64,000 nucleotides of DNA from a virus, in IMG/VR virus record IMGVR_UViG_3300045996_003284, positions 10,248 to 74,247 of that record, one strand, 5' to 3'. Numbering within the stretch: the stretch's first letter is position 1; every line of letters starts with the position of its first letter. Shown piece by piece: positions 34,696 through 60,291 of this stretch. The position numbers and the translations under genes are program-made. Below the pieces are notes generated by a model. That model was not told the DNA's origin, did not search any database, and saw only the letters and a program-made list of their open reading frames with translations.

Positions 34696-37600
34696 TCAGG
34701 TCGGGAAGGCGGTGATGCGCTTTCCATACACCCGGACGCGTCGGTAGTGACCGGAGGCGACGGCACTGTCGGCGGCGGACCGAGCGGCGAGATTGATCCG
34801 GTTCAGGCCGGTTGGTACGGTGACGGAGGTGTCTGTGCCGATGATCGCGCCGTTGACCGACGCCATTGCGTCGTTGACCTTCCAGGCCGCGGTCAGGCGG
34901 ACGTCGGTATTCTGGGGGATTGAACTGCCGGAGATGGACATTTGGGAAGCGCCGGCCGTTACGATGCTGGTCTGGAACGCCCCGCTTGCGGTCCGGGAAA
35001 TCTCGACGCGGTCCGAGGTGGCGGCGCTGGCATCACCGTCATCGATCGATACGATGGTCGCGGCGGATGAATCAACTGGCTGGATCAGGGCAATGTCGGC
35101 GATGACGGTTCCCTCGGCATCGGCGAAAGCAAGGTCCGGAACCTCGGTGCTGGTGATGTACAACGTGTCGGCGGCACGGGTGACCGGCTCCGTCGTTGTC
35201 AGGACCAGGGATGTCGCATGATCCTTGGCCTCAACCTGGGCGCCGGCCAGCAACACCGTCGCTCCAACAGTCCCCCAAAAACCCTGGTCACTGACGTCAC
35301 CGGCAATTCGCAGATAAGAGTCGGTGATGCCGGTGGTGGCGACGGTGAAGACACACTTGTAGATGCCCCCGCCCATGGAGGTCATCGATGTGGCAACCGA
35401 CACGATGTTGGTGCCGCCCGCAATCATCGTTCCCGTGGTTCCGGTCGCCAAATTGAACCAGGCGTAGCGGTCGCCCATATTGAGATAGACCCAATCGTCC
35501 AGCGTGCCTTTCTTTAAGTAGACGCTTGCTGTCAGGAAGGAATTCACCGGGAAGGTTTCCAGTTCCTGGGTAACCGTCCCTTGTTCCGATGTCTTGGTCA
35601 GAACCGACAGGGTATTGGCCCCATCCAGACCGATCCCGCCGCCGGACGATGCCGTGGTGTTGTTCTTGACCCAGGCGGCGCTGGTCAAATCGCTGCTGTT
35701 CGCCAGCAGGTTGGTGGTAGCGTCCTCCAGCAGCAGTCCAAGCGGCTCTTGTGTCGCGGGATTGAAGTTGAACCTTGGCTGATTCCCGTTTGCCTCAACG
35801 AGCCGTCCACGGTTGTTGAAGTAGGTGGCACCGGAGGGTCGGCTGAACGTTTCCACCCCGTACAGGGCGACGTGCGTCTGATAGTTCAGGTCAAGGAACG
35901 GCGCGTCGGCCCAAGAGGACCAGAAGCGCGGCAGTGTTTCGGTGGTAGCGGCGGACTCGGTATACCCATAGGTTCCCATCCGGGACCATTCCAGGTCGAC
36001 GATGCCCTTGGCAAAGGCCGGGGACGTTCCCTGGAGAACGAAACTATCCGCCCCGAAGTCCGCAAATAGCGGGTCGGCGATCTGCGAGTCGGCGTCATAG
36101 CCGCTGAGCAGAGGAAGATTGAAGTAGATGTTGTTGTTGATGACGTTGTCGGCGCCAAGCCCGTCCACGTTCCACAGGGTTCCGGTGCGCGCGGTGGTTG
36201 AGTAGTAGATGTTCTTCTGGAAGCTGTTGCGTTCCGGGTTGACGTTGCCGGTCAGGTCCCCGTTGTCGTGCAGGGTCGAAACGTACAGATCCTGCGGCTG
36301 AATGATGTGAAAGTTGTTCTCGATCACGTTATCGTCGCCACCGTGGATAAAGACCTGTCCCCAGGTGGCGCCGCGCAGGAAATTCTTGGTGACCGTGACA
36401 TCGGAAGAGAGATCGTCGAGATAGATGCAGGATGCCCGGTACGGGTCCAGCAAGGTGCCCGAGGCATTGATGCCGAAGCCGCCGGCGTCCGAGATGTAGT
36501 TGCCGGAGACGGTGGCGTTCAGGTCAACGTCGTCGGGATTGAGGAATTCAATAGCACCGGTGTCATAAGCCCGGCGGTTGGTGCGAGTGATAAAGTTGTT
36601 GGAACAGGTGAAGGCTGTATGGCCCGTGCCCGCCCCCTTGAAACTGAAGGCGTACTGACCGGCGCCATAAACGTCGTTGTAGACCACCTTCGTGTTGCTG
36701 GTGTCCTGGCAGTATAGCGCCGAGCCGGAGCCGAATTCACCCACGTCGCGGAAGGTGTTGGCGTAGATTGTCGTTCCGGACACGTTCGTGCCAATATAGA
36801 GCGCGTCTCCCGCCGTGCCTTCGAAAGTATTGCCGGCAATAAGCGTGTTGTTCCCCGACGAAATGTGGATACCAGTGCCGAGGTTGAGGAAACGACACCC
36901 ACCAAATCGCACACCCACGGCGCCGGATAGGTAGACAGCCGCGCCATCCCAGCGCACGTCGGCGAACGTGAGGTTGGAGAAGGTGACGTTGTCGGCTCCG
37001 GCGTCCATCTGGAACAGGGACTGGACGCGCGGCACCATGACTCCAAGGGACTGGAAGTTGTAGGATTCCGGCTTAACAACCAGTTTGCCATCGGACGCCC
37101 GCCAACCGAATTCGCGGGTGTTCCGGATCAGGCTCGCGTGGTTGAGCAACCGGTAGACCGATCCGGTCTTGACCGTTTCGGCTCCGGTGTCGGCCGCTGT
37201 TAGGGTGATGGTCTTGCTGGTATAGTCGATCGCCGAAACCGGCTTGAGGGTGGTTACATTGATGACGTTGGTGTCGATCGGGGACATGCCGGGGAGTTGC
37301 GCCATCAGACCCGCCTGGACCAGTCCGGCGGGAACGTCGGTGTCGCGGAAGCGGAACTGGGTCGTGCTGGGCGTAGCCACCGCGTCCGCCAGCAGAAATC
37401 CGGTGTGGTAGGGATCGGCCGGATCGAGAACGCCGGTCTGAGCCACCCGCTGGCGCTTGTTGCCGATGGCGAGATCGAGTGAGGTTATGGTCGTGCTGAC
37501 CGAGTAGAGACCGCTGCCTTCCGAAGCGAATCCAGTCAGCCGCTCACCGCCGCTGATGACAGCCGTCTCACCGGGATAACCGGCGATGGTGAGATCGGCG

Positions 37601-37863
37601 GATGATGCGGCCATGTCGATGTGCGTGGTGAAGCGGTGGGTACCACCGCGCACGTAGATCGTCTTGCGGCTGGGGTCAGCCGAAGCCATCTCAACGGCTT
37701 TGGATACCGTCAGGAAGGGTGCCCCCTGGGTGCCTGCGGCGCCGTCGCTGCCGTTGGTCGCAACGTACCAAGCGGTGACGTCGAGTGGGGTTTCCGGCTC
37801 AACCGGTGGCTCCACGGAGGTCCGACGGCGCGACCCCGTCGCGGTATGCATCATCATGCTCAT
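34696..37863 (-). CDS. Beta-helix glycan-active protein fused to a C-terminal LamG-like spike domain
   Basis: YVATNGSD...GT...PF.T, AGYPGETAVISGG, D.GAI, IYLDD.SS; TFSR.S.ATYF...PRF...GLLLE..TTNLL. Confidence 0.8.
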   Translation of the reverse strand: MSMMMHTATGSRRRTSVEPPVEPETPLDVTAWYVATNGSDGAAGTQGAPFLTVSKAVEMASADPSRKTIYVRGGTHRFTTHIDMAASSADLTIAGYPGETAVISGGERLTGFASEGSGLYSVSTTITSLDLAIGNKRQRVAQTGVLDPADPYHTGFLLADAVATPSTTQFRFRDTDVPAGLVQAGLMAQLPGMSPIDTNVINVTTLKPVSAIDYTSKTITLTAADTGAETVKTGSVYRLLNHASLIRNTREFGWRASDGKLVVKPESYNFQSLGVMVPRVQSLFQMDAGADNVTFSNLTFADVRWDGAAVYLSGAVGVRFGGCRFLNLGTGIHISSGNNTLIAGNTFEGTAGDALYIGTNVSGTTIYANTFRDVGEFGSGSALYCQDTSNTKVVYNDVYGAGQYAFSFKGAGTGHTAFTCSNNFITRTNRRAYDTGAIEFLNPDDVDLNATVSGNYISDAGGFGINASGTLLDPYRASCIYLDDLSSDVTVTKNFLRGATWGQVFIHGGDDNVIENNFHIIQPQDLYVSTLHDNGDLTGNVNPERNSFQKNIYYSTTARTGTLWNVDGLGADNVINNNIYFNLPLLSGYDADSQIADPLFADFGADSFVLQGTSPAFAKGIVDLEWSRMGTYGYTESAATTETLPRFWSSWADAPFLDLNYQTHVALYGVETFSRPSGATYFNNRGRLVEANGNQPRFNFNPATQEPLGLLLEDATTNLLANSSDLTSAAWVKNNTTASSGGGIGLDGANTLSVLTKTSEQGTVTQELETFPVNSFLTASVYLKKGTLDDWVYLNMGDRYAWFNLATGTTGTMIAGGTNIVSVATSMTSMGGGIYKCVFTVATTGITDSYLRIAGDVSDQGFWGTVGATVLLAGAQVEAKDHATSLVLTTTEPVTRAADTLYITSTEVPDLAFADAEGTVIADIALIQPVDSSAATIVSIDDGDASAATSDRVEISRTASGAFQTSIVTAGASQMSISGSSIPQNTDVRLTAAWKVNDAMASVNGAIIGTDTSVTVPTGLNRINLAARSAADSAVASGHYRRVRVYGKRITAFPT

Positions 37864-38282
37864 GCTGCGGTGTCACCGCCGAGCACGACCTGAGCGGCGG
37901 TGCCGCTGGCATTGGAAGCGACGAAAACATAAGCCTGGGCATATTGTCCGGCCGTCTTGCTGTGCCCACCGCGCGACAGCAGGGCACCGCTGGCGGCGAC
38001 CGCGACCGTAACCTGTCCAGCCCCCATCTGGACGATTCCGCATTCCCATCCGTCCGGGAGGGAATTGGGAAGTGTCAGGGTGACGGCACCGGACGAGTTA
38101 AAGACGATCCGGCGCCGGTTGTCAGCGGCGGTGGCGGTGTAACTGGCGGTCTTGGTCAGGTTGGCCTGGATGGTCCGGTCTTCCAGGGTGTCGATCAGGT
38201 CGTGCAGGTCCTGCGCCGTGATCGCTCCGGACACGCCAATCGGCATGTTGGTCTTGAGGGTGGCGATCGTCTGGATGGTCAT
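37860..38282 (-). CDS. Fibre adaptor paralog 1 (LKTNMP N-module plus beta-sandwich)
   Basis: Close paralog of 58346..58762 and 58918..59334; ATGA-coupled to 34696..37863. Confidence 0.8.
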   Translation of the reverse strand: MTIQTIATLKTNMPIGVSGAITAQDLHDLIDTLEDRTIQANLTKTASYTATAADNRRRIVFNSSGAVTLTLPNSLPDGWECGIVQMGAGQVTVAVAASGALLSRGGHSKTAGQYAQAYVFVASNASGTAAQVVLGGDTAA

Positions 38283-38299
38283 GCGAAAGCTCCAGGCAT

Positions 38300-38321
38300 A
38301 AAAAACCTCCCAAAAGGCGGT
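38300..38321 (-). terminator. Intrinsic terminator directly before the adaptor RBS
   Basis: ACCGCC-TTTTG-GGAGG-TTTTTT. Confidence 0.6.
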
Positions 38322-38597: not shown

Positions 38598-38951
38598 TCA
38601 GGCCGGCGGGCGAATCAAGGCTTTCTTGACTGTGAAGGTGCCGGTATAGGCGGTTGCGACATCACCGGTCGCGTCGGTGATTTCAAGTTCATGATAGAAA
38701 TTGCCCGACAGGTTGAGAGTATCCTCGGGGTCTAGCACGACCGTGACCGCGCCCCCGATCGCATCCGTGATTTCAAGACCCGCCTCTTCCGTCTTGGTCA
38801 AGAGCGGGGTACTCGAAAAACCAACAGTCTTGGCACGAGAGGCTTGCCACCGCGCTGTCGCGCCGGTGATATCAAAAACATCCCCGGTTGTTGCGTCGGT
38901 GATCGTGAAATTCAGCCTTTTCGTATCGCCCTGGTACATCTCGAAACTCAT
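38598..38951 (-). CDS. BppU N-terminal-like Ig anchor protein
   Basis: YQGDT..L.FTITD....DITGA, G.V.V.L.PEDT..L.G.FY.ELEITD. Confidence 0.7.
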   Translation of the reverse strand: MSFEMYQGDTKRLNFTITDATTGDVFDITGATARWQASRAKTVGFSSTPLLTKTEEAGLEITDAIGGAVTVVLDPEDTLNLSGNFYHELEITDATGDVATAYTGTFTVKKALIRPPA

Positions 38952-41368
38952 GCAACCTCCACGCGAGCCGTCAGGCTGGTTGTTGGGGTGACCTCGCCTG
39001 TTAGGTCGACCTGGTATCGGACTGATCCAATCAGCGAGACCTGCTGCACAATGTCGGTCGCGCCATACACGATGTAGTTGCCCACGGCTGCCGTTGTGAG
39101 CATCGGCAGCATGATGACAACCGTAGCCTCACCGTCCGGAATCGTCCGGACCCCGGAGGCATCATGGTCGACAAGCCTGAGATGCGCAGCCGAAACCCCG
39201 GAGCGGATAGGGAGACTGCGGGATCCTTCTGCGTTGTGATTGGCCGCGCGCAAAAGGATTGCACTGGTGCCAAACAAATTAGGGGGGAGAGAAAGACCTG
39301 TCCCCATCCCAATAAGAGGCGCCATCGTAACGGCGACGGTCGCATCGATCGGCGGAACGCTCCGCGTGGCGGTGGCCACCGACTGGGCTTTCGGGAGTGC
39401 TGCGGCCGATTGCCCAAGCCGATCCGGGACCGTCCGTGATCCCGACGCCGCGGTTTGGCAAAGCGGGAGACGGGCCGACGCAGTACCGTTGATTCCGGGC
39501 GCGAAAACCTGCCCAGCGGAAGCGGTCGTCAGATGCGGGATTGCCGCAGCGCCGCTTCCTGTCCGTTGAGGAATCGTTCGGTCACCGGTCGCCGTTTCGA
39601 CCATCTTTGGCAAGACACCGGCGACGACGCCCAACCGGTCGGGAATTTCCCGAACACCCGTGGCTGACGCTTGTAGGGCGGCCAAACGCCCCTCAACGAG
39701 TCCATCCAGCCCGCCGATTCCACGCGCGCCGGTGGCGCTGTGACTGAGCGTGGGGGTCTGGGATTGGATCGTGCCGACAATATCCGGAAGCGTACGCGAC
39801 CCGGCTGCAACGGTGCCAAGAGCTGACAGCCGCGCAGTCGACAAACCGCTGATGCTGGGCAGAAATACCTGTCCCGCAGCAAGACTTGCCGGGAGCGAAA
39901 GCTCGGCTGCACCGGTTCCCATCCGATCCGGGATGGTCCGAGTGCCAGTTGCCGTCGTTGTCCCGATTTTTAGAGTGCTTGCAGCGGTACCCAGACGGTC
40001 TGGGATTGTCCGGCTGGCGGTTGCAACGGTTGTTAAATTGGAAAGACTCGCTGCTGACAGACCTGTCCGGTCCGGAATTGTGCGCGCGCCCGCAGCAACA
40101 CTTGCCAAAAATGAAAGCTCGGCCGAACCGGTTCCCGTCCGTTCCGGAATCGTCCGGGCACCGGTTGCCACCGTCGTCCCAATTTGCAGAATGCTTGCGG
40201 CAGTCCCAAGGCGATCTGGGATTGTCCGGCTGGCGGCTGCTGCGGTGGCAAGCTTCGCAAGACTCGCCGCTGACAGACCTGTCCGGTCCGGAATCGTACG
40301 CGTGCCCTCAGCAACCGACGTTGTTTGGGCAAGGGACGCTGCCGACGAACCCGTTCGCTCGGGGAGGGTTCGAGTTCCGGCCGCAACCGACGTTGTTTGA
40401 GAGAGGGCTGTCGCCGATGAACCCGTTCGCTCTGGAAGGATCCGGGTGCCAGCCGCCGTCGACCGGATCGTCCCAAGAGTAGCACTGGAACTTCCGGTAT
40501 AGCTTGGCGCTTCATATGCCCCAACAGCGGCGGTCGTGGCTTTGGGTAGGGTTCCGGCCGATGTGCCGGTAATCTCTGTGGTGGACGTATGAAGAGAATA
40601 AAGTTTGCGTTGCAGCGGTCTCAGAAATTGATACGGGGCTTTGTTGAGAGAGATCTGCTCTTCGGCTGTAAGCGCACGGTTCCAGATCGCTGCGTAGTAA
40701 CACGTTCCGTTTGTCCCATCCCCGTAAGCCACCACATTGCGATTCATCAAGATGACGGTTTTGTCCGCACCAAAGAGAATCGGAGCGCTGTCAAACGTGT
40801 TCGATGTCGTTGATTTTGAGACACCGTTCAGACGGAGAGTCGCCGACGTATCCGACCGGGTTGCGATAAGATGCTGGGAACTCGCCGTGGGAAATGAGCC
40901 ATTTTCAAAAATCGCGGCTCTCGGATTGTTCGCCACGCCATAAGCATATTGCAGAGAAATTCGGGTGGTCGAACTATCCCGAGTCAGTGAGATAGGCTGA
41001 TAGGGGATCGCATGTTCGGTACTGTAATAGGGAAGATGAACAAGACGGCCGTTGCTCGCTGACGACCGGATATCGACGAGGGTAGAAACCGTAAACGCGG
41101 TCGTAATGGTACCAACGGTTTGAGCGCTGTAACCATAAGCGACGCCGACCGAAATCGTGGAAATGGAGTTGAATCCAACTCCACTGGGGCCGGCGGCTAT
41201 CTGAGCGGCGTTGATATAAGTTGGCAGGGAACGATTGACGAGTTCTGGGGCTCCTCTCTGTCCGGGGAGGGCATAGAACACCAACCCGCGCGTCAGCGGA
41301 TGAGACCAGTCGATCTCGACCGGGCCGGTTGGCTGCTGAAGCCAGCGGGTTGGAAAGATCAGGGCCAT
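38948..41368 (-). CDS. LamG-tipped protein with ~21 x 24-aa repeats (putative long filament core/ruler)
   Basis: HPL.RGLVF...IWNRAL LamG domain followed by A.G.RT.P.R.G repeats. Confidence 0.75.
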   Translation of the reverse strand: MALIFPTRWLQQPTGPVEIDWSHPLTRGLVFYALPGQRGAPELVNRSLPTYINAAQIAAGPSGVGFNSISTISVGVAYGYSAQTVGTITTAFTVSTLVDIRSSASNGRLVHLPYYSTEHAIPYQPISLTRDSSTTRISLQYAYGVANNPRAAIFENGSFPTASSQHLIATRSDTSATLRLNGVSKSTTSNTFDSAPILFGADKTVILMNRNVVAYGDGTNGTCYYAAIWNRALTAEEQISLNKAPYQFLRPLQRKLYSLHTSTTEITGTSAGTLPKATTAAVGAYEAPSYTGSSSATLGTIRSTAAGTRILPERTGSSATALSQTTSVAAGTRTLPERTGSSAASLAQTTSVAEGTRTIPDRTGLSAASLAKLATAAAASRTIPDRLGTAASILQIGTTVATGARTIPERTGTGSAELSFLASVAAGARTIPDRTGLSAASLSNLTTVATASRTIPDRLGTAASTLKIGTTTATGTRTIPDRMGTGAAELSLPASLAAGQVFLPSISGLSTARLSALGTVAAGSRTLPDIVGTIQSQTPTLSHSATGARGIGGLDGLVEGRLAALQASATGVREIPDRLGVVAGVLPKMVETATGDRTIPQRTGSGAAAIPHLTTASAGQVFAPGINGTASARLPLCQTAASGSRTVPDRLGQSAAALPKAQSVATATRSVPPIDATVAVTMAPLIGMGTGLSLPPNLFGTSAILLRAANHNAEGSRSLPIRSGVSAAHLRLVDHDASGVRTIPDGEATVVIMLPMLTTAAVGNYIVYGATDIVQQVSLIGSVRYQVDLTGEVTPTTSLTARVEVA
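39075..40575 (-). repeat. 72-bp-period coding repeat, ~21 units, including a 216-bp higher-order duplication
   Basis: e.g. AAGTRTLPERTGSSAASLAQTTSV / AEGTRTIPDRTGLSAASLAKLATA. Confidence 0.85.
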
Positions 41369-41375
41369 CGGTGTG

Positions 41376-41810
41376 TCAGACCGTCTGGGCGGTCAAGCCC
41401 TGCCATCCAACCGTCGTCGCGGTTGCTGCGTCGAGCGCTGCTCCCGTCATATTGCGGATTCGCAGTTGCCAGTAGTTCGGCATGGAGCCGTTAAACCCCG
41501 CGGCCAGACTGACAACGCGTTTGCGCGTTTGCACGCCCGCCGCCGCGAGAGAAATCGTGCCCACCCATTTATCGTTGACATCATCATCAAAATCGGTGTT
41601 ATCGACACTGCCCTTCAGCCAGATCTCGACATAGCCCGTCGCCGTCGCGCCAGACAGCGTCGTCACCTGGATTTCCGCCAGAACATCAAGGTAGTTGGTT
41701 GTCGCGTTGCTCACGGTCGGCGATGTTGCGGAGGAGGAATTGGCCAGCGACGTCAGGCCCGTAATTGTCAGGGTTTGGACCGAGCCATACAGGGTTTTGA
41801 TTTCAGCCAT
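41376..41810 (-). CDS. Beta-sandwich virion protein, paralog of 44904..45332
   Basis: LT..GL..LAN.SSATS..V.N...YLDVL, NDKW.GT, P..W..R.RN.TGAA, AQTV. Confidence 0.75.
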   Translation of the reverse strand: MAEIKTLYGSVQTLTITGLTSLANSSSATSPTVSNATTNYLDVLAEIQVTTLSGATATGYVEIWLKGSVDNTDFDDDVNDKWVGTISLAAAGVQTRKRVVSLAAGFNGSMPNYWQLRIRNMTGAALDAATATTVGWQGLTAQTV

Positions 41811-41897: not shown

Positions 41898-42311
41898 CTA
41901 GGCCGTCGGCATGGTAATGGTGACCGAGGAGATCGAGACGACACCGCCGGTGACAATGTTGGTTGCGGACAGGTTGAGCTGTTGGCCACTGGTTCCGACC
42001 GTTCCTTGATAAACAACAGTGGTCCCGTCCGACTGCAGTGCCCGAAAGAACGTTGCCGTTCCATCCGCGTCGGCACCACTGTCCTGGGTGATGGCGTTGG
42101 CTGTGATGATCCGGTCGGCACCACTGGCCGATGCCGACCCAAACGCCGTCGCACCGAAGCGCAGTTCGGCCAGCAGGGTGTTGCCGCTCAGGGCAGCGTT
42201 GGCCGTCGCGGGCTCGGTTCCCGAATAGATTCGGATGTAGCCGGTGTTGAGGGACGTGGCGATGGTGCTGAGCATCGCATCAGCGGTGGCGTTCGTGATC
42301 TTCATGGCCAT
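41898..42311 (-). CDS. ~14 kDa putative filament subunit, paralog B
   Basis: RIYSG.EP......LSGNTLLAEL, ADGTATFFRAL.SDGTT. Confidence 0.75.
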   Translation of the reverse strand: MAMKITNATADAMLSTIATSLNTGYIRIYSGTEPATANAALSGNTLLAELRFGATAFGSASASGADRIITANAITQDSGADADGTATFFRALQSDGTTVVYQGTVGTSGQQLNLSATNIVTGGVVSISSVTITMPTA

Positions 42312-42328
42312 GGCGGATCTCCAGACAT

Positions 42329-42353
42329 AAAAAAAGCCACCGGAAAGGGCGGC
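42329..42353 (-). terminator. Intrinsic terminator before subunit B
   Basis: GC stem plus TTTTTT, then ATGTCTGGAG. Confidence 0.7.
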
Positions 42354-42391: not shown

Positions 42392-42814
42392 TTAGACCGG
42401 CATCGCGACGGTCAAAGACTGGATGTCGACCGGACCGCCGAGATAGACTTGATAGGGGTTAACGCCCGGTCCGGTCATGACCAGTTCGGCGCTGTCACCG
42501 GCCGCGCCCTGCAGGATGATGGTGGTCCCGTCTGACTTCAGCGCCCGGAAGAAGGTGGCGATACCCTCAGCATTGGCGCTGGTGTCGGAGGCAATCAGGT
42601 TGGCGGTGATCACCCGGTTGGAACCGCTCGTCGAAGGTGTGCCGAAGGCGGTGGCGCTGAAGGTCAATTCCGCCAACAGGGTATTGCCCGATAGGGCGGT
42701 CGTGGCGGTTTCCGGCTCGCTCCCGGAGTAGATCCGCAGGATGCCGCTGTTCAGCGCAGTGCTCAGTCCGGACAGCAGGGTATCAGCCCCGGACGGGGAC
42801 AGTTTGGTGGCCAT
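42392..42814 (-). CDS. ~14 kDa putative filament subunit, paralog A
   Basis: Clear paralog of 41898..42311. Confidence 0.75.
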   Translation of the reverse strand: MATKLSPSGADTLLSGLSTALNSGILRIYSGSEPETATTALSGNTLLAELTFSATAFGTPSTSGSNRVITANLIASDTSANAEGIATFFRALKSDGTTIILQGAAGDSAELVMTGPGVNPYQVYLGGPVDIQSLTVAMPV

Positions 42815-42890: not shown

Positions 42891-43184
42891 TTAAACGGCG
42901 GCGCAGATCAGACGACGGTAGCGCCCCTTCATGTCGGGATTGCCGGCCTTCGGGTCGGTCACAGCGATGACCCGGTAGGTCGCGCCGTCGAAGTCGATCC
43001 GCGTGCCGGCTTTGACCGTGACGTCGCCCCGGACATAGATTTCATGGGTTGCCCGGTAGCGGGCGGCATCGTCGGCGCTGAGCGGGCCTAGGGCGGCGCT
43101 CACCGCCCGATCGCCGATCATGATGGTTCGGCGTCCGCTGTCTGCGGTGCCGGCGCGGTCCAGCCGGGGCACATGAAAAACCAT
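42891..43184 (-). CDS. Second head-closure-like (SPP1 gp16-like) protein
   Basis: ATHEIYVR....VKAG.RI.FDG.TY.V.AV.DP......LIC. Confidence 0.5.
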   Translation of the reverse strand: MVFHVPRLDRAGTADSGRRTIMIGDRAVSAALGPLSADDAARYRATHEIYVRGDVTVKAGTRIDFDGATYRVIAVTDPKAGNPDMKGRYRRLICAAV

Positions 43185-44903: not shown

Positions 44904-45332
44904 CTAGACCGTCTGCGCCGAAACGCCCCGGTAACTGGCAGAGCAGCCCGTCCCGTTGAAGGCCGCCCCGGTGCTGTTGCGAAAGCGAATCCGCCAGAAC
45001 GGCGGCAGGGTGCCGCCGAAACTGGAAGCAATCGACATGACCCGGTTGACGACCTGGGTGCCGGCGGAGACCAGGGGCATGGTACCGATCCACTTGTCGT
45101 TGCCGACAGTGTCGAAATAGACACCGTCGGCCGACCCCGCAGCGTAGACCTCGATGACCCCAGTGGCCAGCGCCCCAGAGCCTGTCGTGATCTGGGCGAA
45201 GATCAGCACGTCGAGGTAGGCAGTGTTGGTAACGTTCGCAGAGGTGGCGGAGGAACCGTTGGCAAGTCCGAGAAGGCCGGAAACCGTGAGGGTGGTGGCG
45301 GTGGCGGCATAGACTGGCTGAATGTTAGCCAT
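44904..45332 (-). CDS. Beta-sandwich virion protein, paralog of 41376..41810
   Basis: Shared motifs and the same AQTV end. Confidence 0.75.
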   Translation of the reverse strand: MANIQPVYAATATTLTVSGLLGLANGSSATSANVTNTAYLDVLIFAQITTGSGALATGVIEVYAAGSADGVYFDTVGNDKWIGTMPLVSAGTQVVNRVMSIASSFGGTLPPFWRIRFRNSTGAAFNGTGCSASYRGVSAQTV

Positions 45333-45804
45333 TGTCAGGGGCCACGTTCAGAGCGCGGGCCGCGGCGACATCGAGATGATGGACCCGCGTTAGACCGATT
45401 TCCTCGGCCCGGCTGATCTGGGTATCCCCCAGCGCGACCATGTCATCACGCTGTTGTTCGGTCATGGCGCCGGCGACAACCATGGTCGAGAGCAAATTGA
45501 ACACGGCGGTGGCGATCTCCGGATCGTTCATTCGGATGGTGTCGAACGAATTGGGCGCCAGGGTTTGCAGAATGGTGATGGCCGATCCCCGGAGGATCGG
45601 GTCCTCCGAGGCGGTGACGGCCTGGATGCGCGGCCACAGGCCCTTGAGCAACACGTGGCTGCGAACTTCCGAGGCCGACACTGCCCTCTTGCCGGGGCGG
45701 GTTGGGGCGTTGAGGGTATCAGCCACGGCGCTGTCGGCCATCTCGGCATAGCCGAGGTTAAGCGGATCGGAGTCTATCTCCGCCGCGAGGGTTTCCAGAT
45801 CCAC
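45325..45804 (-). CDS. Helical phage protein of the filament cassette (GTG start)
   Basis: AAAGGA RBS; L.AEI.SDP...GY......VA..LN ... SRAEEIGL. Confidence 0.65.
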   Translation of the reverse strand: MDLETLAAEIDSDPLNLGYAEMADSAVADTLNAPTRPGKRAVSASEVRSHVLLKGLWPRIQAVTASEDPILRGSAITILQTLAPNSFDTIRMNDPEIATAVFNLLSTMVVAGAMTEQQRDDMVALGDTQISRAEEIGLTRVHHLDVAAARALNVAPDNG

Positions 45805-45835
45805 GGGAACGGTTCCTTTCGATGCTCGGGATGTA

Positions 45836-50083: not shown

Positions 50084-50212
50084 GGAGTCCCCCAAAAATC
50101 TTTATTGATTGGTGACAAGGGCGTTCATCTTACCGGATTGCGTCTAAAAAAGAATTATACTGAACGGTGTTTATACGAAAGATAACATGACTTGTGTTGT
50201 TTCTGCACAGGT

Positions 50213-53210: not shown

Positions 53211-56201
53211 TCAGACCTCGCTACCGATCAGGGTGACTTGGAGTCCCTTGGCGCTCGCTCCGGCAACATCGACGTCGAAAGTCACGATACCTCCCTTGGT
53301 CAGCGTCCCGGTCACGAAGGCGGTGCTGGACGCAACGGCGCCGGCGGCGGCGATCGTGACCGGAGCGCTCAGGACGGTTGACCCGTTGAGGTTGACATCG
53401 ACAGTCGTGACCGTGGTACCGGAAGCCGGCAGGTACATCTCGACGGCGGCCAGTTTGAGGGCGATTGGCATGCGCAGGGCGCGCACCCCGACGCCGACCG
53501 TGACAGTGGTCGTCTCAGCGAACAGCGGCACGACGATGGCGCGGGTGTTCTTGACCAGGACCGCGTCGCCCGAGGCGTTAAATCCCACCACCTGCCCCTC
53601 GGTGCCGGTGATCTCGTTGGTGCTGGCGTAGGTGTCAATGGCGTCACGGGTGCGAACCGGACTCATGTAGGTCGTGGAACTGACCCCGGCTTGGGCTTCC
53701 GCCTGGGTGGCAAAGGTGCCGCCGCCACCGCCACCGCCCCCCTGAGCTGACATCAGGGTCCAGGCACCGTTCCCGAACACGAAGTCAGCGCTGACGCCGG
53801 CCGCCAGCGTGGTCAGACCCGTGCCGGTGTGACTGTTGACCGTGACCAGAAAGGGACCGGTGGCGGATTCGGCGCGCTCGATCCGGACGACCGCCCCCCG
53901 GTAGACGCGCGGCGCGTTAAGGGCCGCGTTGGCATAAGGCTCGTCGATGTACTGGCTGAGCGTGAGCGAGATGTTGCCGGTCAGCGGCGATGAGATCCGG
54001 ATGTGCCGTCCGTGGACCGACGGATAGTAGATCGACAGGTCGGGGGTGTAGGTGGTGAAACCGCCGGTCGCACCGCCGACCGAGTTGTTGAAGGCGAGCA
54101 GTGGACCGTCCAGGCTCTCGCTGGTCGGATCGACGGTGGCGTAGCACAGGTCGTCGATCCGGTGCGGAGTCTCCGGCCGGGTGTCGAGGCGAACCTGCTG
54201 GAAGGTGCCGGTCAGATTGAGGGCAGCGGCGGAACTGCTGTTGCCGAGCAGGGCAAAACGGACGGAACCGGTCTTGACCGTCCCAGTAACAAACAGGTTG
54301 GTGGCAATCACCGAGAAGCCTTGATCACCGAGGTAGATCGCGGCGTCGGTAACGCCCTGACCGTTGCTGAGGGCGGTCTTGGAGATGAGGCTGCCAGCGA
54401 ACTGGGCGCTGGTGCCCCCCAAGCCATGGATCAGGCCGGCATAGCCGTTGGTGGTGGTCGGCGTCAGGTTCGCGAAGACGGTTCCGGAGAACGAGCAGGT
54501 CGGGCAGGACGACATTGCCAGCGGACGCTGACAGATCAGGTCTTCGACGGTAAGCTGGGTGAAGTGGGTCTGTTCCAGGCCGGCGAGCCAGACGCCGCCA
54601 CCGACCGTGGCCAACGTGCCGTTGCCGGTAATCCGGCAGTTGACGAAGGCGCTGCCGGTGCCGGTCTTGTGGACCAGCCCGTAGCCGAGGCCGTTCACCA
54701 TGTTGATCTTGACGTGCATGAACGTGTTGTTGAACGACCCGCTCGACCCGGAGACACCGATCCCAACCCAAGCCCCGGTCGTCTCGATATCCTCGAAGTG
54801 GCTGTCGTTGACGCTGCTCAGGCGAAGCGCCGCCACGTAGTTCTCGGACGCGGTGGGGTTGGTGCCGGCGGCCTGGTCAGCGTCATAGCTAAGGCTGACA
54901 CCTTGCAGGGTGATCCGGCTGACCGATGCGGCGGCAATGACGTTGACGCCCGTCTGGAACTGCCGGATGACGCAGCGGGCACCCTCGATGACGAAGCCGC
55001 TGCCGGCAATCGCCAGCGGGCCATGGATCTCGAAGACCCCGCCGCCCATGTCAACGCGCCCCTTGGCCCCCGCCGCGTCGCTCCAGCACTGATTGATGGC
55101 CGTGCTGTTGGTCTGGCGCTGAGCCTGACTGAGACCAACGCCGCGGATGGCACCATACGTCTCAGGACGATAGGCCCCGTCGGCAATGACGCCGCCACCG
55201 CCACCAACATCGCCGACGACGTTGAGGGTGCCGTCCAGCTCCACGGTCAGGCCGGTCCCCGGCCTGACGATGCCGGCCGTGCCGGCGGTAGCAAGCTGCG
55301 GAATGTAAGGGGTCGGGTTGGGATTGGACAGAACGCCGGTGCCGCTGACCGTCAAGCCGGTGCCCACGGTGATGCCACCGCGTGTCGTCGTCGTGGCAGC
55401 GGGCAAGGTATAGGAAGCCGTGGACGAAACGATGCCGGTCGCCGGGTCGATCGTCAGGCCGGGTCCGATGCGGATGACCCCGAGCGTGGAGGGGCTGGCG
55501 ATCTGGGGCAAGGCAGATGCCCCGCCCAGCAGTTCCAGGCGGACCTTGCGAAGCGAGTTCGTGCTGGTGTCGTGAGTCAGCAGATAGTCGTTGGCGAGAT
55601 CGGGCTGGGTATCCTCGGACTGCGAGGCAATCGAGATGGCAAGGATTCGGTCAGCGGTCAGAGTGCCGCCGCCGGACAGGCCAGGGCCGGCTGAGATCGA
55701 TCGGGTCGCCGGCACGACGTTGGTCGCGGCAAAGGTGATGGTGTCGGTCGCGGCATCCGCCGAGACGCTGATGTTTGATCCGCCCGCCAGGGTCAGGGTA
55801 TCGGAGGTGCTGTCGGCAATCACGGTCGTCGTGCCGACGGCAATATTGGCGAAGGAATTGCTCGACGATCCGCCGCTGGTGCCACCCGGCAGGCGGTCCA
55901 GGCGGACGCGCTTGGGCAGACCCTCAGAGACGTCGTAGGTAATCACGTAATCGGCCGAGACGTTGGGGCTGAGGTCTTCCGACAGACCAGCCGGGTCAAG
56001 CTGGAGGCTGAGGTCGGCGCCCAGCGTGCCGCCGCCTCGGACACCGCGGCTGGTATCGACCCGGCGAGTGGCCGGAACGCGACCCTGGACGATCGCGGCG
56101 CGCTTCATCTTATGGTCGGCGCCGTCGCGCCGGACGTAAAGAAGGTCGGAGTCCGTCGCCTCCAGGGCTTCGGGAAGCTGGTCAAGGGTTTGATCAGCCA
56201 T
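53211..56201 (-). CDS. Trimeric fibre/spike: DQLP-type N-module, shaft repeats, beta-helix, C-terminal adaptor domain
   Basis: MADQTLDQLP; VPATR..GGGTL x2; YTLPAAT....GG-type repeats x3; PETYGA. Confidence 0.8.
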   Translation of the reverse strand: MADQTLDQLPEALEATDSDLLYVRRDGADHKMKRAAIVQGRVPATRRVDTSRGVRGGGTLGADLSLQLDPAGLSEDLSPNVSADYVITYDVSEGLPKRVRLDRLPGGTSGGSSSNSFANIAVGTTTVIADSTSDTLTLAGGSNISVSADAATDTITFAATNVVPATRSISAGPGLSGGGTLTADRILAISIASQSEDTQPDLANDYLLTHDTSTNSLRKVRLELLGGASALPQIASPSTLGVIRIGPGLTIDPATGIVSSTASYTLPAATTTTRGGITVGTGLTVSGTGVLSNPNPTPYIPQLATAGTAGIVRPGTGLTVELDGTLNVVGDVGGGGGVIADGAYRPETYGAIRGVGLSQAQRQTNSTAINQCWSDAAGAKGRVDMGGGVFEIHGPLAIAGSGFVIEGARCVIRQFQTGVNVIAAASVSRITLQGVSLSYDADQAAGTNPTASENYVAALRLSSVNDSHFEDIETTGAWVGIGVSGSSGSFNNTFMHVKINMVNGLGYGLVHKTGTGSAFVNCRITGNGTLATVGGGVWLAGLEQTHFTQLTVEDLICQRPLAMSSCPTCSFSGTVFANLTPTTTNGYAGLIHGLGGTSAQFAGSLISKTALSNGQGVTDAAIYLGDQGFSVIATNLFVTGTVKTGSVRFALLGNSSSAAALNLTGTFQQVRLDTRPETPHRIDDLCYATVDPTSESLDGPLLAFNNSVGGATGGFTTYTPDLSIYYPSVHGRHIRISSPLTGNISLTLSQYIDEPYANAALNAPRVYRGAVVRIERAESATGPFLVTVNSHTGTGLTTLAAGVSADFVFGNGAWTLMSAQGGGGGGGGTFATQAEAQAGVSSTTYMSPVRTRDAIDTYASTNEITGTEGQVVGFNASGDAVLVKNTRAIVVPLFAETTTVTVGVGVRALRMPIALKLAAVEMYLPASGTTVTTVDVNLNGSTVLSAPVTIAAAGAVASSTAFVTGTLTKGGIVTFDVDVAGASAKGLQVTLIGSEV

Positions 56202-56240: not shown

Positions 56241-58349
56241 TTAAAAGGTCGGCCCGGCGGCCAATGAAACGGTGCCGGTCAGGCTGGCGGGGGCGGAACC
56301 GCCGGTTCCACTGTTGGGGATGGGCACGCTTAGGGTGTTCAGCCGGGTATAGATCAACGGCGTCCGGCCGAGGTCGGAAACGATGTCCTGGCCAGACGCG
56401 ATGGCCTGGGTCTCGGCGGCGGACAGCGTGCCGTTCATCTTGAAGAAGCTGGCCAGACTGCCGTCGAGCCAGCGGGCGCTGCCAGAGATGGGCGGTGCGC
56501 GGGTGGCGAGGACCGGCTCCTCGGTCGGCTGAATGGCGCCGAGACCGGCGACTGAGCGGCTGAAGTAAAGCGTGCGGGAGCCCTTGAGGGGCGTCTGGTA
56601 GATGTTGAGGGTTTCGGTGGCCTTGATCCGCTCAACCGTCCAGAGCCGCCAGGCAGCCGTGGTCAGGCTGGCGTCGGTCAGGCCAATCGCCTGATAGGCG
56701 GAGACCCCGGCGCCACGCACGTTGGCTTCGATGGCGTGGGGGACCGCGGCAGCGGACTCGTGGATGAGGAAATTGACGCTGTGGCTGGTGGTGTAGCCGC
56801 CGACCGAGATGACGTATTGCGCCGCGGTGCCGGTGTTGTCAGCGACCGAAACCCAAACGCCCAGAGTCCAGTCGGCATCCGGGAAGTCCCACAGGGCGCT
56901 GTCAGCGTAGGTGATGCAACCGGTCAGGCCGTCGAAACGCAGCGCCGAGGTCTGGATACCGGGAATGACCGGATCGACCGGCGGGGTCGTCGTGGCCGGC
57001 GCGTTGACCGGGTCCATCAGGGGCAGCATAGCATTGCCGGTCGTGCGGCCCAGAGCGGTGACGTTGTCAAGGATGGCGGAGGTTCCGTCGAACCGGCCGT
57101 ACTGGTAATAGACATCAACGTCCGTGCCAGGATCCGCCGCAAGATGGATCGTAATGGTGCTAGCGCCGATGGCCATGCTGGAAATCGCGAGACTGCCCGC
57201 GTCGCTGTAGGCGGTGTTTTTGGTAAACACCTTGAAGTCGCTCGGTTGGGTGCCGCTGCTGAGCGCCAATGCCGTACCGGCGCGATGCTGGACCGACAGG
57301 GTCAGCGTGTGGCCGGAGCGGCTGACACCGGCGATCGCCGGCCCGAGGTTGGGGCGCAGCTCGGTCCCGATAGCATAAAGCAGAGCATGGGCGTAAGCGT
57401 TGGCGATGGTTTCCGAGCCGGCGGGCGTCTGGTTCGACGCGTCGGCGAGCGCTACGGTGGGTGTCCAGCCAAGGTTGAGAGTGCCGGGGTTCTCGGCGAT
57501 GTACTCGAAGTGGGCGCGGCGCAGATCGTGGACCGCGTCGGTCGGGTCGGCGTTCCGGCGCATCAGAGGGAACACGGCAAAGCGCTGGATGGTCGCGATG
57601 CTTTCCAGGCGGGTGCGAAGGTCGGCCAAACGGGTCTTGTACTGCGCGCGGGTGAGCAGGCCGATGTCGCCGCTACCCTGGTGCCACAGGATGGCACCGA
57701 CCCGGCCAAGACTGGCAAGCGCGGACGCAGCGGCGGTATAGGCAGAATCGGCGGCTTCCCAATCAGCGATCGAGACGCTGTCAGTGGCAGTCTGGAGCAC
57801 AGCCTGGGGCACGCCGGTGGCGGTAGCCATCAGGTTGAGGAAACGGATGATGCCGTTGCCGCTGGAGTTGGGGAGCACACCGGGCAGTTCCCAGGCCGCG
57901 CCGTCGAACACGACGGTGCGGTCATCCGGCGTCGGTGGGGCATCGACCGCGGTGCTCATCCGGCGCTGCTGAGACGCCCCGGCGAAAACCCAAACATCGC
58001 CGACGCCCCACTGGGTGGTTCCGGTGACGATCTGGACGGTGTTGAGGAAGCGGACTTGGATCTTGTACCAACCACCCTGGGGCACGGAAATCGACCCGCT
58101 CCAGGTGCCGCCGGAAGGGGATGGCGCCGCCACCAACCAGTCCTGAATTACGGCAAAGGTCATGCTGTCGATGACGCGCGCCTCAACGGCGGCCGGAATT
58201 CCGGTGTAGCTGCCGGACAGCGGCACCGGCGAGGCAGCGCCAATCCGCTGGTAGACACGCCGCGGCGCCACCTGGGACAGGGCGATCGTGCCGGTTGCGA
58301 CGGTAACGTTCCGGCGGCGCGCAGCGGCCGAGGCGGCGGCGATGGTCAA
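56241..58349 (-). CDS. SGNH/sialate O-acetylesterase-like domain plus LamG domain
   Basis: VPQGGWY...WGVGDVWVFAGASQ, GAILWHQG; C-terminal ALRFDG...DWTLGVW. Confidence 0.8.
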   Translation of the reverse strand: MTIAAASAAARRRNVTVATGTIALSQVAPRRVYQRIGAASPVPLSGSYTGIPAAVEARVIDSMTFAVIQDWLVAAPSPSGGTWSGSISVPQGGWYKIQVRFLNTVQIVTGTTQWGVGDVWVFAGASQQRRMSTAVDAPPTPDDRTVVFDGAAWELPGVLPNSSGNGIIRFLNLMATATGVPQAVLQTATDSVSIADWEAADSAYTAAASALASLGRVGAILWHQGSGDIGLLTRAQYKTRLADLRTRLESIATIQRFAVFPLMRRNADPTDAVHDLRRAHFEYIAENPGTLNLGWTPTVALADASNQTPAGSETIANAYAHALLYAIGTELRPNLGPAIAGVSRSGHTLTLSVQHRAGTALALSSGTQPSDFKVFTKNTAYSDAGSLAISSMAIGASTITIHLAADPGTDVDVYYQYGRFDGTSAILDNVTALGRTTGNAMLPLMDPVNAPATTTPPVDPVIPGIQTSALRFDGLTGCITYADSALWDFPDADWTLGVWVSVADNTGTAAQYVISVGGYTTSHSVNFLIHESAAAVPHAIEANVRGAGVSAYQAIGLTDASLTTAAWRLWTVERIKATETLNIYQTPLKGSRTLYFSRSVAGLGAIQPTEEPVLATRAPPISGSARWLDGSLASFFKMNGTLSAAETQAIASGQDIVSDLGRTPLIYTRLNTLSVPIPNSGTGGSAPASLTGTVSLAAGPTF

Positions 58350-58762
58350 ACGGAGGTATCCCCAGTCAGCAGAACCTGCGGAGCACCGCCAACGTTGCTG
58401 TAACAGACCAGATAAGCGGCAGCGTATTGGCCGGCAGTGCGGACGTGGTTTTCACGGGACCGGACGTTGCCACCGAGGACCACGAAGGTGGCCGAGCCCA
58501 GGCCGACCTGGGCTACCATGATCTGGAAGCCGACCGGCATGGTGCTGGGCAGGGTTATCGTCACCGCCGTTGGCGAATTGACGATGATCGTCCGCCGGTT
58601 GTCGGCCTCGGTGACGACGTAGCTGGCGGTCTTGGTCAGGACGTCCTGGGTGGTGCGATCCTCGACCGTGTCGATGAAGTCATGGAGATCCTGGATCGAG
58701 GTGCCCCGGATCTGCCCGATGGGCATCTTGGCTTTCAGCCCGGAAATCGTATCGACGGCCAC
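58346..58762 (-). CDS. Fibre adaptor paralog 2 (GTG start)
   Basis: GGAG RBS; TISGLKAKMPIG...QDLHDFIDTVEDRT; TTGA overlap with 56241..58349. Confidence 0.8.
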   Translation of the reverse strand: MAVDTISGLKAKMPIGQIRGTSIQDLHDFIDTVEDRTTQDVLTKTASYVVTEADNRRTIIVNSPTAVTITLPSTMPVGFQIMVAQVGLGSATFVVLGGNVRSRENHVRTAGQYAAAYLVCYSNVGGAPQVLLTGDTSV

Positions 58763-58917: not shown

Positions 58918-59334
58918 TTACACCGCCGTATCACCGAAGAAGGCTACCTGGGGAGCGGTCCCGGCGTTGGCATAGCAGAACAGGTGGGCCATGCTGCCGG
59001 TGCCGGCCAGTTTGGTGTGGCTGCTGCGGTGCAGGAGCGTGCCATCGGTCACGGCGACGGTGACCTGTCCAGCGCCGATCTGGAGGATGATGACTTCCCA
59101 GCCAACCGGGACGCTGTTTGGGATCGTGAAGGTGACGCCGGAGGCGGCGTTGAAAACCAGACGCCGACGGTTATCGGTAAGAACAGCCGTATAGTTGGCC
59201 GTCTTGGTGATGACCTCCTGGGAGGTCCGGTCTTCCAGCGTGTCGACGATGTCGTGGATGTCCGAGACGGTCGTGCCGCCAGCCACGCCGATCGGCATGT
59301 TGGTCTTGAGCGTAGCGATTGTCTGAACGGTCAT
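58918..59334 (-). CDS. Fibre adaptor paralog 3
   Basis: TIATLKTNMPIG...DIHDIVDTLEDRT ... GDTAV. Confidence 0.8.
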   Translation of the reverse strand: MTVQTIATLKTNMPIGVAGGTTVSDIHDIVDTLEDRTSQEVITKTANYTAVLTDNRRRLVFNAASGVTFTIPNSVPVGWEVIILQIGAGQVTVAVTDGTLLHRSSHTKLAGTGSMAHLFCYANAGTAPQVAFFGDTAV

Positions 59335-59479: not shown

Positions 59480-59962
59480 CTATTGGGCCGAGCCGTCAGG
59501 ATTGGGCGCAGCCGGCGGATCTTCGGGGACAGGAGCCGGCGAGGGTGTGGCGGGAGGATTTTCCGGCGCTGGATTCTCCGGAGTGGGTTCCGGAGCGCCA
59601 TCGGTCGGCTGCTGGAGCGGCGGGGTGTCGTCAGTGGGCACGTCGTCTTCCTCCGGACCGATGGTCAGAGCCATCACGTTGGCTTCGCCGCTGATAGAGT
59701 CGATGAGGGCAACACCGACCAGTTCGCGGATGCCGTCGCCCAGGTCGGCGTCGACTGTGACGGTGATCTGAGCGGTGCCAATCGGACCAAGGGCGCGGAC
59801 CACAGCGCTGCGGCCATCCGCCGCCGGCTCGACCGCGAGGGCCGGGGGGTTGCTCGAAGCCCAGGCGGGCACACCGTCGATCGTAGCGTCGTTGCCGAAC
59901 TTGTCCCGGATGACGAAACTCACGGGCGCGCGTTTGCCGGCACGCAGGATATGGTTTGGCAT
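59480..59962 (-). CDS. Ig-like (Big_2-like) capsid decoration candidate with Pro-rich tail
   Basis: D..GN...IDG.P.W.SSNP, G.AQITVT.D. Confidence 0.65.
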   Translation of the reverse strand: MPNHILRAGKRAPVSFVIRDKFGNDATIDGVPAWASSNPPALAVEPAADGRSAVVRALGPIGTAQITVTVDADLGDGIRELVGVALIDSISGEANVMALTIGPEEDDVPTDDTPPLQQPTDGAPEPTPENPAPENPPATPSPAPVPEDPPAAPNPDGSAQ

Positions 59963-59963
59963 G

Positions 59964-60122
59964 TCATTCCTCGTTAAGGGGAGGACCGATAATCATGGTG
60001 ATCGTCGGGACGGGGTCGGTTGGCGGTGGCGCGGGCTTCGGTTTCAGGACGACCTCAAACCGGACCTCTTCGACGAGGCCGGCGCTCAGCAGGGCCGCCA
60101 ACGACTCCGCGAGGTCGGCCAT
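59964..60122 (-). CDS. Small hypothetical protein
   Basis: Tightly packed in the operon; ends 1 nt before the Ig gene. Confidence 0.5.
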   Translation of the reverse strand: MADLAESLAALLSAGLVEEVRFEVVLKPKPAPPPTDPVPTITMIIGPPLNEE

Positions 60123-60129
60123 GGCCGGA

Positions 60130-60291
60130 TCAGCTCTTGGCGTCCGGGTCGTCCGGCCGATGGTTGCCAACGTGCTTCAACTGGCCGGACTCGACGGCCG
60201 GGTGCTTCTCCAGTTCCTTCTCAAGATCAGCCGTGGGGTCTGATTTGGAAGACTTGTTGGCGGTCTTGTTCGCGGTCTTCTTTTCGGTCAT
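60130..60291 (-). CDS. Small charged hypothetical protein
   Basis: AGGAG RBS. Confidence 0.5.
   Translation of the reverse strand: MTEKKTANKTANKSSKSDPTADLEKELEKHPAVESGQLKHVGNHRPDDPDAKS

Follow-up and report, generated by a model that had tools for sequence, protein, structure and literature searches.

Organization and conservation of the capsid-to-adaptor region

The stretch analysed here, referred to as the window, comprises 64,000 nucleotides (bases 10248-74247 of the 74,247-base linear IMG/VR record IMGVR_UViG_3300045996_003284) and carries the late genes of an uncultured siphophage, all of which lie on the minus strand, as does every phage gene of the window located below. Its major capsid protein gene (61185-62177) encodes a product of the SPP1 gp13 type (phrog_247 E 4e-101; Pfam Gp13-like E 1e-9; 47.5% identity to SPP1 gp13), and its head-tail adaptor gene Ad1 is found at 34082-34636 (phrog_477 E 4e-30). 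These two genes are the upstream and downstream boundaries of a slot of ~26 kb that contains ~23 genes in one orientation, spaced by -8 to 357 nt and overlapping by 4 nt at several junctions. This block is the subject of the present analysis. An earlier inspection of the DNA, made without database searches (hereafter the sequence-only reading), had counted ~25 co-oriented genes between capsid and adaptor, which is borne out; the position that it gave as the end of the block, 60291, is an internal ATG of the open reading frame (ORF) 60130-60522.

The block was also found, with its gene order shuffled, in at least seven independent contigs of related uncultured phages. In six IMG/VR contigs with capsid proteins of 70-74% identity (L002-L007), block genes directly follow the capsid gene, and these genes encode an immunoglobulin-like (Ig-like) protein, small knob proteins, an esterase, a fibre protein of 996 amino acids (aa) and a 997-aa protein. 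In two more contigs, L099 and L103, these genes also follow the capsid gene, though arranged differently. The esterase gene is duplicated in L099, and in L003 the gene for a 1055-aa beta-helix protein is placed between the esterase gene and the 996-aa gene. In the relative G002 (47,993 bases), the capsid gene (35752-36738) and Ad1 (10905-11471) are ~24 kb apart, and the genes between them encode homologues with 37-79% identity in nearly the same order. An assembly artefact is excluded, as independent contigs show the same arrangement. Four genes of the block have no counterpart in G002 or in the G001 fragment, namely an RTX gene, the gene for an 871-aa beta-helix protein, the third knob gene and a 214-aa ORF. 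In L009 and L016, with capsid proteins of 53-54% identity, Ad1 lies ~100 nt past the capsid gene.

Among 50,697 records of isolate phages, no match was found either by megablast of 20 kb of the block or by tblastn of the knob and 996-aa proteins, and the GTDB genomes contain no close relative of the capsid protein (best identity 53%). The clade consists of uncultured soil siphophages whose capsid is of the SPP1 type and whose tail tip is of the lambda type. Its location in the late operon, its conservation in relatives and the match of several of its products to proteins of solved virions indicate that the block is almost certainly virion-structural.

Beads and putative collar domains and ropes

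Two neighbouring genes of the block encode small paralogous proteins of 137 aa (41898-42311) and 140 aa (42392-42814), which match phrog_3758, annotated as 'virion structural protein', at E 2.6e-34 and E 2.5e-23, respectively. A profile built from five sequences (A5, including the 140-aa protein) matched PDB chain 44nx_B (147 aa) at E 7e-14, with residues 1-135 aligned on 1-145, and chain 9rkv_A (141 aa) at E 7e-11. The first chain comes from the tail of the Pseudomonas podophage A1002 (entry 44NX), where it is the fibre I protein gp40 (PMC13730344), and the second from 9RKV, a tail-fibre entry of the Agrobacterium phage 7-7-1 (PMC12796354). Both proteins of the window are therefore described here as whisker or fibre beads. 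In the isolate-phage records, the bead protein had matches only in Mycobacterium phages and in one Vibrio phage.

A collar-type domain of ~130 residues occurs twice in the block. It stands alone in a 170-aa protein (45836-46348), a Gp77-like fibre-tail adaptor, and it forms the C-terminus of a 566-aa protein (43197-44897), whose last 131 aa are 50% identical to the 170-aa protein. The Pfam family PF23148 (Gp77, the family of GP4 gp77) was matched by 5/5 homologues tested, with a best E of 5.8e-6. The profile of this domain (profile A3) had no match in the PDB by sequence.

The third component is a pair of repeat proteins, here called ropes. The longer one (806 aa, 38948-41368) has an N-terminal LamG domain (Laminin_G_3 E 2e-8) and, between aa 263 and 766, a 24-residue unit repeated 21 times in exact register, without indels. 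Both the LamG tip and the shaft repeats had been noticed in the sequence-only reading and are clear in this protein. The unit consensus is roughly G-x-S-A-x-x-L ... G-x-R-T-I-P-D-R; the self-identity of the repeats is 0.38, 0.35 and 0.41 at lags of 24, 48 and 72 residues, and their composition is rich in Ala, Ser, Thr, Gly and Pro (0.59 together) and poor in Phe, Trp, Tyr and Met (0.027). The homologue in G002 has ~34 units. In the DNA of the rope gene, positions 39873-40456 show a 216-nt period (72 aa, or three units) with 80% matches and 2.1 copies, as well as a 72-nt period, which points to recent duplication of units. The shorter rope is the 566-aa protein itself, in which a LamG-like N-terminus and a Pro-punctuated, strand-like middle part precede the Gp77-like domain, identified by its Pfam match. 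It is 29% identical to the 806-aa protein over 415 aa and has ~6 units of 24 residues, with a weak 24-residue lag.

Two further small genes may belong to the same core. A 97-aa protein (42891-43184) is a second head-completion-type protein, encoded within the block (Pfam Phage_HCP E 1.2e-5; 3/3 homologues match). It was considered as a recent duplicate of the phage's own head-completion protein Hc1, and this was rejected, as the two have no sequence similarity. A 117-aa Ig-like protein of the BppU_N type (38598-38951; Pfam BppU_N E 1e-5, matched by 2/3 homologues tested; phrog_1084 E 5e-17) is a candidate rope anchor, its gene overlapping the end of the 806-aa rope gene by 4 nt, and in G002 and L103, too, the rope gene is followed by a gene for a BppU_N-type homologue. 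Of the two Ig-type anchors proposed in the sequence-only reading, this one is confirmed in its fold family, and the second, a capsid-adjacent 160-aa protein (59480-59962) with a Pro-rich C-terminal tail, is possibly Ig-like. The latter matched phrog_14417 alone (E 9e-4) and no Pfam family; homologues are present in 6/6 close relatives, conserved beside the capsid gene.

Each rope gene is accompanied by a gene for a small jelly-roll protein: that of 144 aa (41376-41810) lies upstream of the long rope gene and that of 142 aa (44904-45332) directly upstream of the 566-aa rope gene, and the two products are 49% identical. The model of the 144-aa protein (predicted local distance difference test score, pLDDT, 91.8) is a generic jelly roll, similar to XepA (Z 11.0), to the Bdellovibrio Bd2133 fibre tip (Z 9.8) and to the KHP40 cement protein (Z 8.5). 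For a capsid cement of the Bbp16 type the Atlas gave a partial lead, in that clusters neighbouring the 144-aa protein have the Pfam Bbp16 family in 23-35% of their members, and the fold search gave no specific partner. The jelly-roll profile (A4) had no match in the PDB by sequence. No match to either protein was found in the fetched relative loci; homologues are present in metagenomes, where some share long contigs (50,574, 118,488 and 138,435 bp) with knob homologues.

Comparison with chain-like fibres

Chain-like fibres of the 'beads-on-a-rope' kind were first seen by cryo-electron microscopy in 2023 and have been solved so far only in podophages and myophages, with 2-11 bead dimers. In A1002 and Bas63, small proteins form dimers that are threaded like beads on an extended 'rope' (PMC12609058, PMC13730344). 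In the Ralstonia podophage GP4, the rope is a protein of its own that is linked to gp77, the Ig-like fibre-tail adaptor, and the beads are dimers of gp80, Fiber I. In the E. coli myophages Bas63 and Sf14, the rope is an N-terminal extension of the collar protein, which is seated at the junction of neck adaptor and head-completion proteins, and the whisker protein gp5 forms the dimers (PMC12609058). In the Pseudomonas podophage A1002, the nozzle-rope gp39 bears 11 dimers of gp40/gp41 (PMC13730344).

The core of the block resembles each of these systems in part. As in A1002, the beads are ~140 aa long, homologous to gp40 and present as two paralogues; as in GP4, there is a putative Gp77-type domain and a separately encoded candidate rope; and as in the Bas63 collar protein (PMC12609058), the 566-aa protein has its candidate rope at the N-terminus and its collar-type domain at the C-terminus. 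The genes also lie beside the neck genes, as those of chain-like fibres do. Unlike GP4, Bas63 and A1002, the particle would be that of a siphophage with an SPP1-type capsid. The putative ropes have ~21 units here and ~34 in G002, unlike the solved chains of 2, 5 and 11 dimers, and they differ from those of the three phages in their LamG tips and in a unit number that varies. Further differences from these phages are the presence of two collar-type genes, of one more head-completion-type gene and of a gene of the BppU_N type, as well as the embedding of the whole in ~26 kb that also encode five or more large, putatively glycan-active proteins.

Taken together, these features suggest, with moderate confidence, that the block represents a capsid-to-adaptor slot, much enlarged, which is devoted to accessory virion fibres and has a collar-rope-whisker fibre as its core. 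The Gp77-type collar domains, free in the 170-aa protein and fused in the 566-aa protein, would sit where adaptor and head-completion proteins meet in the neck, and long single-chain ropes would extend outward from this collar, each ending in a lectin-like LamG tip. Dimers of the 137-aa and 140-aa beads may thread onto the 24-residue repeats, and the second head-completion-type protein and the BppU_N-type Ig protein would probably add or adapt docking sites. The sequence-only reading had proposed a head/neck appendage and knew of no described system of this size. The first proposal is upheld in part, as the core matches a system that is neck-anchored in solved phages. As to the second, the core maps to a fibre already described (GP4 in 2023; Bas63/Sf14 in 2025; A1002 in 2026) which speaks in part against novelty of kind, though not of scale.

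Several points weigh against this interpretation. The clade is known from genes alone, and the systems with which it is compared are known from solved particles. By hhalign, the bead profile against the single GP4 gp80 sequence was not significant, and the bead proteins have no match to the Pfam Gp80 family at E <= 1. The window's own copy of the 170-aa protein matches PF23148 at E 0.0069 with 17.3 bits, below the 27-bit cutoff, and its hhalign alignment to GP4 gp77 is weak (E 0.073, 81 of 93 residues aligned). Neither rope protein (806 aa or 566 aa) has a sequence match to any solved PDB chain, and the 24-residue repeats may form a three-chain fibre shaft instead of a single-chain rope. GP4 gp79, the suspected rope of GP4, likewise had no PDB match by sequence, from which no claim is drawn. 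Bead homology by itself does not fix a location at the neck, because the A1002 rope is part of the nozzle and the related small protein of phage 7-7-1 is at the baseplate. Finally, none of the observations links the enzymes of the block physically to the whisker system.

If the collar-rope-whisker assignment is true, chain-like fibres also occur in siphophages, and their ropes lengthen by the addition of 24-residue units (~21 here, ~34 in G002). The slot between capsid and adaptor would then be a hot spot for the gathering and shuffling of lectin, esterase and lyase modules.

Large putative glycan-active and fibre proteins

The remainder of the block is dominated by five large proteins. The 702-aa protein (56241-58349) is a carbohydrate esterase of the SASA type (Pfam SASA, PF03629, E 4.3e-6; 26.9 bits for a cutoff of 24.8), and its homologues in relatives show 46-52% identity. 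The sequence-only reading had called it an SGNH protein with LamG; the esterase part agrees with the SASA match, and the C-terminus is weakly LamG-like, its match to Laminin_G_3 being sub-threshold (E 0.048). No DUF1737 capsid-binding domain was detected in it with Pfam at E <= 0.01. A virion-borne precedent exists in phi24B gp84, a SASA esterase of the NanS-p type that decorates the capsid (10.64898/2026.04.10.717836). Like gp84, the 702-aa protein is a phage-encoded SASA-family esterase and is probably virion-borne; unlike gp84, it is without DUF1737 and has a different domain order and gene neighbourhood.

The 996-aa fibre protein (53211-56201) matches phrog_677, 'baseplate wedge tail fiber connector', at aa 108-198 (E 6e-7) and has homologues of 45-50% identity in relatives. 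It has no match in Pfam, the PDB or the isolate phages, and a Pfam search with its middle part gave no beta-helix. Of the three large beta-helix proteins named in the sequence-only reading, this one is thus not supported, and the other two are recognized by Pfam. The first of these is the 1055-aa protein next to Ad1 (34696-37863), a right-handed beta-helix protein (Pfam Beta_helix E 9e-12) with a C-terminal phrog_5939 'tail protein' domain (E 3.5e-57); the phrog_5939 domain also heads the product of gene 12241-14946 in the tail-fibre block. The second is the 871-aa protein (46395-49010), in which a pectate-lyase-like beta-helix is combined with Calx-beta (Pfam Pect-lyase_RHGA_epim and Calx-beta, E 3e-6 and 7e-8).

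The 997-aa protein (50213-53206) had been described as lyase-like, which holds for its N-terminal RIFT-barrel domain. This PcRGLX match (PcRGLX_1st, E 3e-5), which makes the protein rhamnogalacturonan-lyase-like, is its sole Pfam hit. There is no match to the PDB by sequence, and the homologues in G001 and G002 are 45% identical. This protein and two other fibre proteins together have 7 copies of a motif that is both acidic and aromatic, (F/Y/W)xxx(F/Y/W)xxx(F/Y/W) with two or more Asp/Glu, compared with 0.74 +/- 0.9 times (maximum 5) in shuffled sequences. It is found at aa 69-77 of the 997-aa protein (53000-53002 region), at aa 295-307 of the 566-aa protein and at aa 624-669 of the 12241-14946 product, and it recurs in G002 at equivalent places, the N-terminus of the 997-aa homologue and rope-2. 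A role as a docking peptide is possible. Capsule, biofilm and plant polysaccharide, which had been suggested as targets of these proteins, are speculation.

Knob proteins and the placement of the accessory proteins

Three paralogous knob proteins of the 138-aa type are encoded at 58918-59334 (knob A1, 138 aa), 58346-58762 (knob A2) and 37860-38282 (knob A3). They had been called near-identical adaptors, which does not hold, as knob A2 is 46-52% identical to the other two and knob A3 is 62% identical to knob A1. The AlphaFold model of the knob, made with 32 homologues (pLDDT 93.5), predicts helices at residues 6-12 and 23-37 followed by a beta knob at residues 39-138. The knob is most similar to residues 198-293 of gp52, the capsid spike of Pseudomonas phage Pa223 (VIA Z 15.1, root-mean-square deviation 1.7 A over 95 residues; Foldseek E 8e-7), and the structural alignments to gp52 span the knob only. 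The matches to residues 80-180 of CBA120 TSP4 (Z 9.2) and to a KP1 baseplate protein (Z 10.3) are clearly weaker. In 8/401 alphaproteobacterial genomes searched (L105-L112), the knob domain is always the C-terminal end of ORFs of 287-882 aa, and PHROG matches likewise put the knob at protein C-termini. A knob protein that stands alone, at 138 aa, seems to be peculiar to this phage clade.

Pa223 gp52 is a trimer held at the three-fold axes of the capsid through its N-terminal 40 residues (10.1101/2025.06.11.659172). The knob proteins resemble it in having an N-terminal anchor of ~40 residues and then a C-terminal knob of the same fold. They differ in that the triple beta-helix shaft (gp52 residues 42-200) is missing, so that the knob starts at about residue 39, and in being three paralogues, each encoded just upstream of another gene. 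On the strength of the gp52 match, the weaker baseplate and tailspike matches and the C-terminal position of the knob in longer ORFs, these proteins are best described as anchor-plus-knob mini-spikes rather than as proven docking platforms.

The wide margin of the gp52 match over all other structural matches, with its anchoring precedent (10.1101/2025.06.11.659172), raises the alternative that the enzyme fibres and knob proteins decorate the capsid as spikes on symmetry axes, leaving at most the whisker core at the neck. The genes come immediately after the capsid gene, and phi24B carries a SASA esterase on its capsid; the esterase of the block, however, is without the DUF1737 domain that binds the capsid there. 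The knob fold also recurs in baseplate and tailspike proteins (Z 9-10), elsewhere it is the C-terminal tip of longer fibre-like ORFs, and the anchor of the knob proteins is shared with a beta-helix gene of the tail-fibre block. We regard decoration of the capsid as unlikely. The shared anchor is the 40-residue N-terminus of the knobs, which also heads a 358-aa beta-helix protein outside the slot (10306-11382; Pfam Pect-lyase_RHGA_epim E 2e-14). The 358-aa protein matches the knob proteins by BLASTP at E 1e-5 to 2e-8, over aa 1-41 and beyond, which suggests that one anchor module serves different heads. This module, the Gp77-like domain that is found both alone and fused, and the gene order shuffled among relatives all agree with the interchangeable modules proposed in the sequence-only reading.

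The same observations bear on the view that the block consists of displaced fibres and tailspikes of the tail tip (baseplate), branched through gp10-like domains as in CBA120 or G7C. Apart from the knob fold, which resembles CBA120 TSP4 80-180 and KP1 baseplate proteins (Z 9-10), the phrog_5939 domain and the N-terminal anchor are common to the block and to the canonical tail-fibre block, the 996-aa protein matches phrog_677, and the phage 7-7-1 homologue of the beads belongs to a tail-fibre region. A full lambda-type tip is already present in the window, however, with a J-like tip protein (17367-22256) and, downstream of it, four more fibre genes reaching as far as 10306. The Gp77-type collar and head-completion-type genes also point towards the neck, and the knob is here a stand-alone 138-aa protein, not a tailspike N-terminus. 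We give a tail-tip origin a low probability. The block would share with CBA120 (TSP1-4) and G7C (gp63.1/gp66) the presence of several glycan-active spikes in one virion, and the knob bears some resemblance to their T4 gp10-like fold (Z ~9); in those phages the docking domains are within the N-termini of tailspikes, on the baseplate or podovirus tail, unlike the separate small protein found here, whose docking is conjectural.

A docking role for the knob proteins is possible, given the 4-nt overlaps with two large enzyme genes, the recurrent order of knob and then esterase gene, and the pattern of a basic peptide. The overlaps are between the gene of knob A2 and the start of the esterase gene and between that of knob A3 and the start of the 1055-aa gene, and a knob gene is followed by the esterase gene in G002, L003, L004 and L099 as well. 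The peptide, A(A/S)RRR, is found at the N-terminus of enzymes encoded after a knob gene, namely in 5/6 esterase homologues and in the 1055-aa protein (58320-58349 and 37830-37863), and the L003 copy of the 1055-aa protein has neither a preceding knob gene nor the ARRR peptide. The 22 nt before the 137-aa bead gene (42312-42333) resemble those before the gene of knob A3 (38283-38304): TTTTTATG(T/C)CTGGAG. This common stretch may be a translation signal or a recombination seam.

Returning to the enlarged slot with a collar-rope-whisker core, the neighbouring genes would supply it with glycan-active fibres, that is, the SASA esterase, the beta-helix proteins, the PcRGLX-like protein and the 996-aa fibre, plus the three mini-spikes. 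Such appendages could tether the virion to surface polysaccharide, which they would de-acetylate or cleave before the cell is reached by the lambda-like tail tip. A stronger form of this proposal, which we regard as doubtful, is a neck with at least twelve lectin-tipped ropes of perhaps ten or more bead dimers each, on which the same neck/head scaffold also docks several esterases and lyases through short anchor peptides. Candidate anchors would be the 40-residue N-terminal module, the ARRR peptide and the acidic EFxxEFxxEF motif. A plug-in multi-enzyme appendage of this kind would take up a third of the genome, far beyond any solved chain-like fibre. If the enzymes do dock on the same scaffold, it would be a natural template for the modular display of several glycan-active heads per particle and a test case for soil phages crossing thick exopolysaccharide layers.

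Necks and other virion parts can bear sugar-binding modules, as in the neck passage structure of lactococcal siphophages; no sequence or domain link to that structure was found, and its scale is much smaller. A cellulosome-type cohesin-dockerin system was rejected, as the Pfam matches of the block proteins include no cohesin or dockerin family and the RTX repeats described below are HemolysinCabind, not dockerin. The likeness to a cellulosome drawn in the sequence-only reading is to this extent withdrawn, and branched assembly remains an analogy.

RTX gene, conjugation operon and possible host

Two neighbouring genes of the slot stand out from the others. A 341-aa RTX protein with calcium-binding repeats (49070-50095; HemolysinCabind E 8e-18) is encoded by a gene of lower GC content that has its own strong intrinsic terminator (49043-49014, 13-bp stem and T run) and is absent at this place in G002; in L003, a gene with a 27%-identical product is found on the opposite strand, upstream of the scaffold gene. 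The RTX gene is probably a moron and not a fibre part. The gene of the 871-aa beta-helix protein is specific to this genome and has a GC content of 0.567, lower than that of its neighbours. Its product is 33% identical over 317 aa to a beta-helix protein of the adjacent conjugation operon (L001 5566-7479).

Extended to most of the block, these traits (a terminator of its own, low GC and variable position in the first case; low GC, restriction to one genome and resemblance to the conjugation operon in the second) would describe non-virion cargo, such as secreted or lysogen-expressed polysaccharide enzymes and morons. The remaining genes do not share them: they are co-oriented, tightly packed and partly overlapping inside the late operon, they are conserved in relatives, and several of their families are known only as virion parts. 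We consider it very improbable that cargo makes up most of the block.

The left end of the phage's contig (L001 1-10400, window 1-2845) carries a Trb-type conjugation operon that encodes TrbB, TrbE, a 637-aa beta-helix protein, TrbL, TrbG and TrbI. TrbE is 72% identical to TrbE of the Skermanella rosea plasmid pSR-1, which has its Trb genes in the same order, trbE and trbL again being separated by one gene, there for a 641-aa hypothetical protein. The phage may reside on a plasmid or an integrative and conjugative element, or be a phage-plasmid. Small shares of the stretch are contained in three soil metagenome runs, and no RNA run was among the sequencing runs listed as containing it. The Trb match to pSR-1 and the occurrence in soil point weakly to a soil host of the Azospirillaceae.

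Flanking genes and minor open reading frames

Downstream of Ad1 the late genes follow in the order Hc1 (33732-34085), Neck1 (33175-33621), tail terminator (32774-33178), tail tube (31065-31484) and tape measure (24799-29835). On the other side of the slot, the scaffold gene (62329-63180; phrog_206 E 3e-28) lies upstream of the capsid gene, and the portal and terminase genes would lie beyond the right end of the record, in whose contig a search for a terminal repeat found none. Within the slot, a helical protein is encoded at 45325-45801, with no significant family match; the long ORF at this place, 45325-45969, overlaps the 170-aa collar gene. Next to the capsid gene, the Glu/Lys-rich product of 60320-61126, the start of which is uncertain, is without a Pfam or PHROG match and has weak homologues at the equivalent position in L005 and L007.

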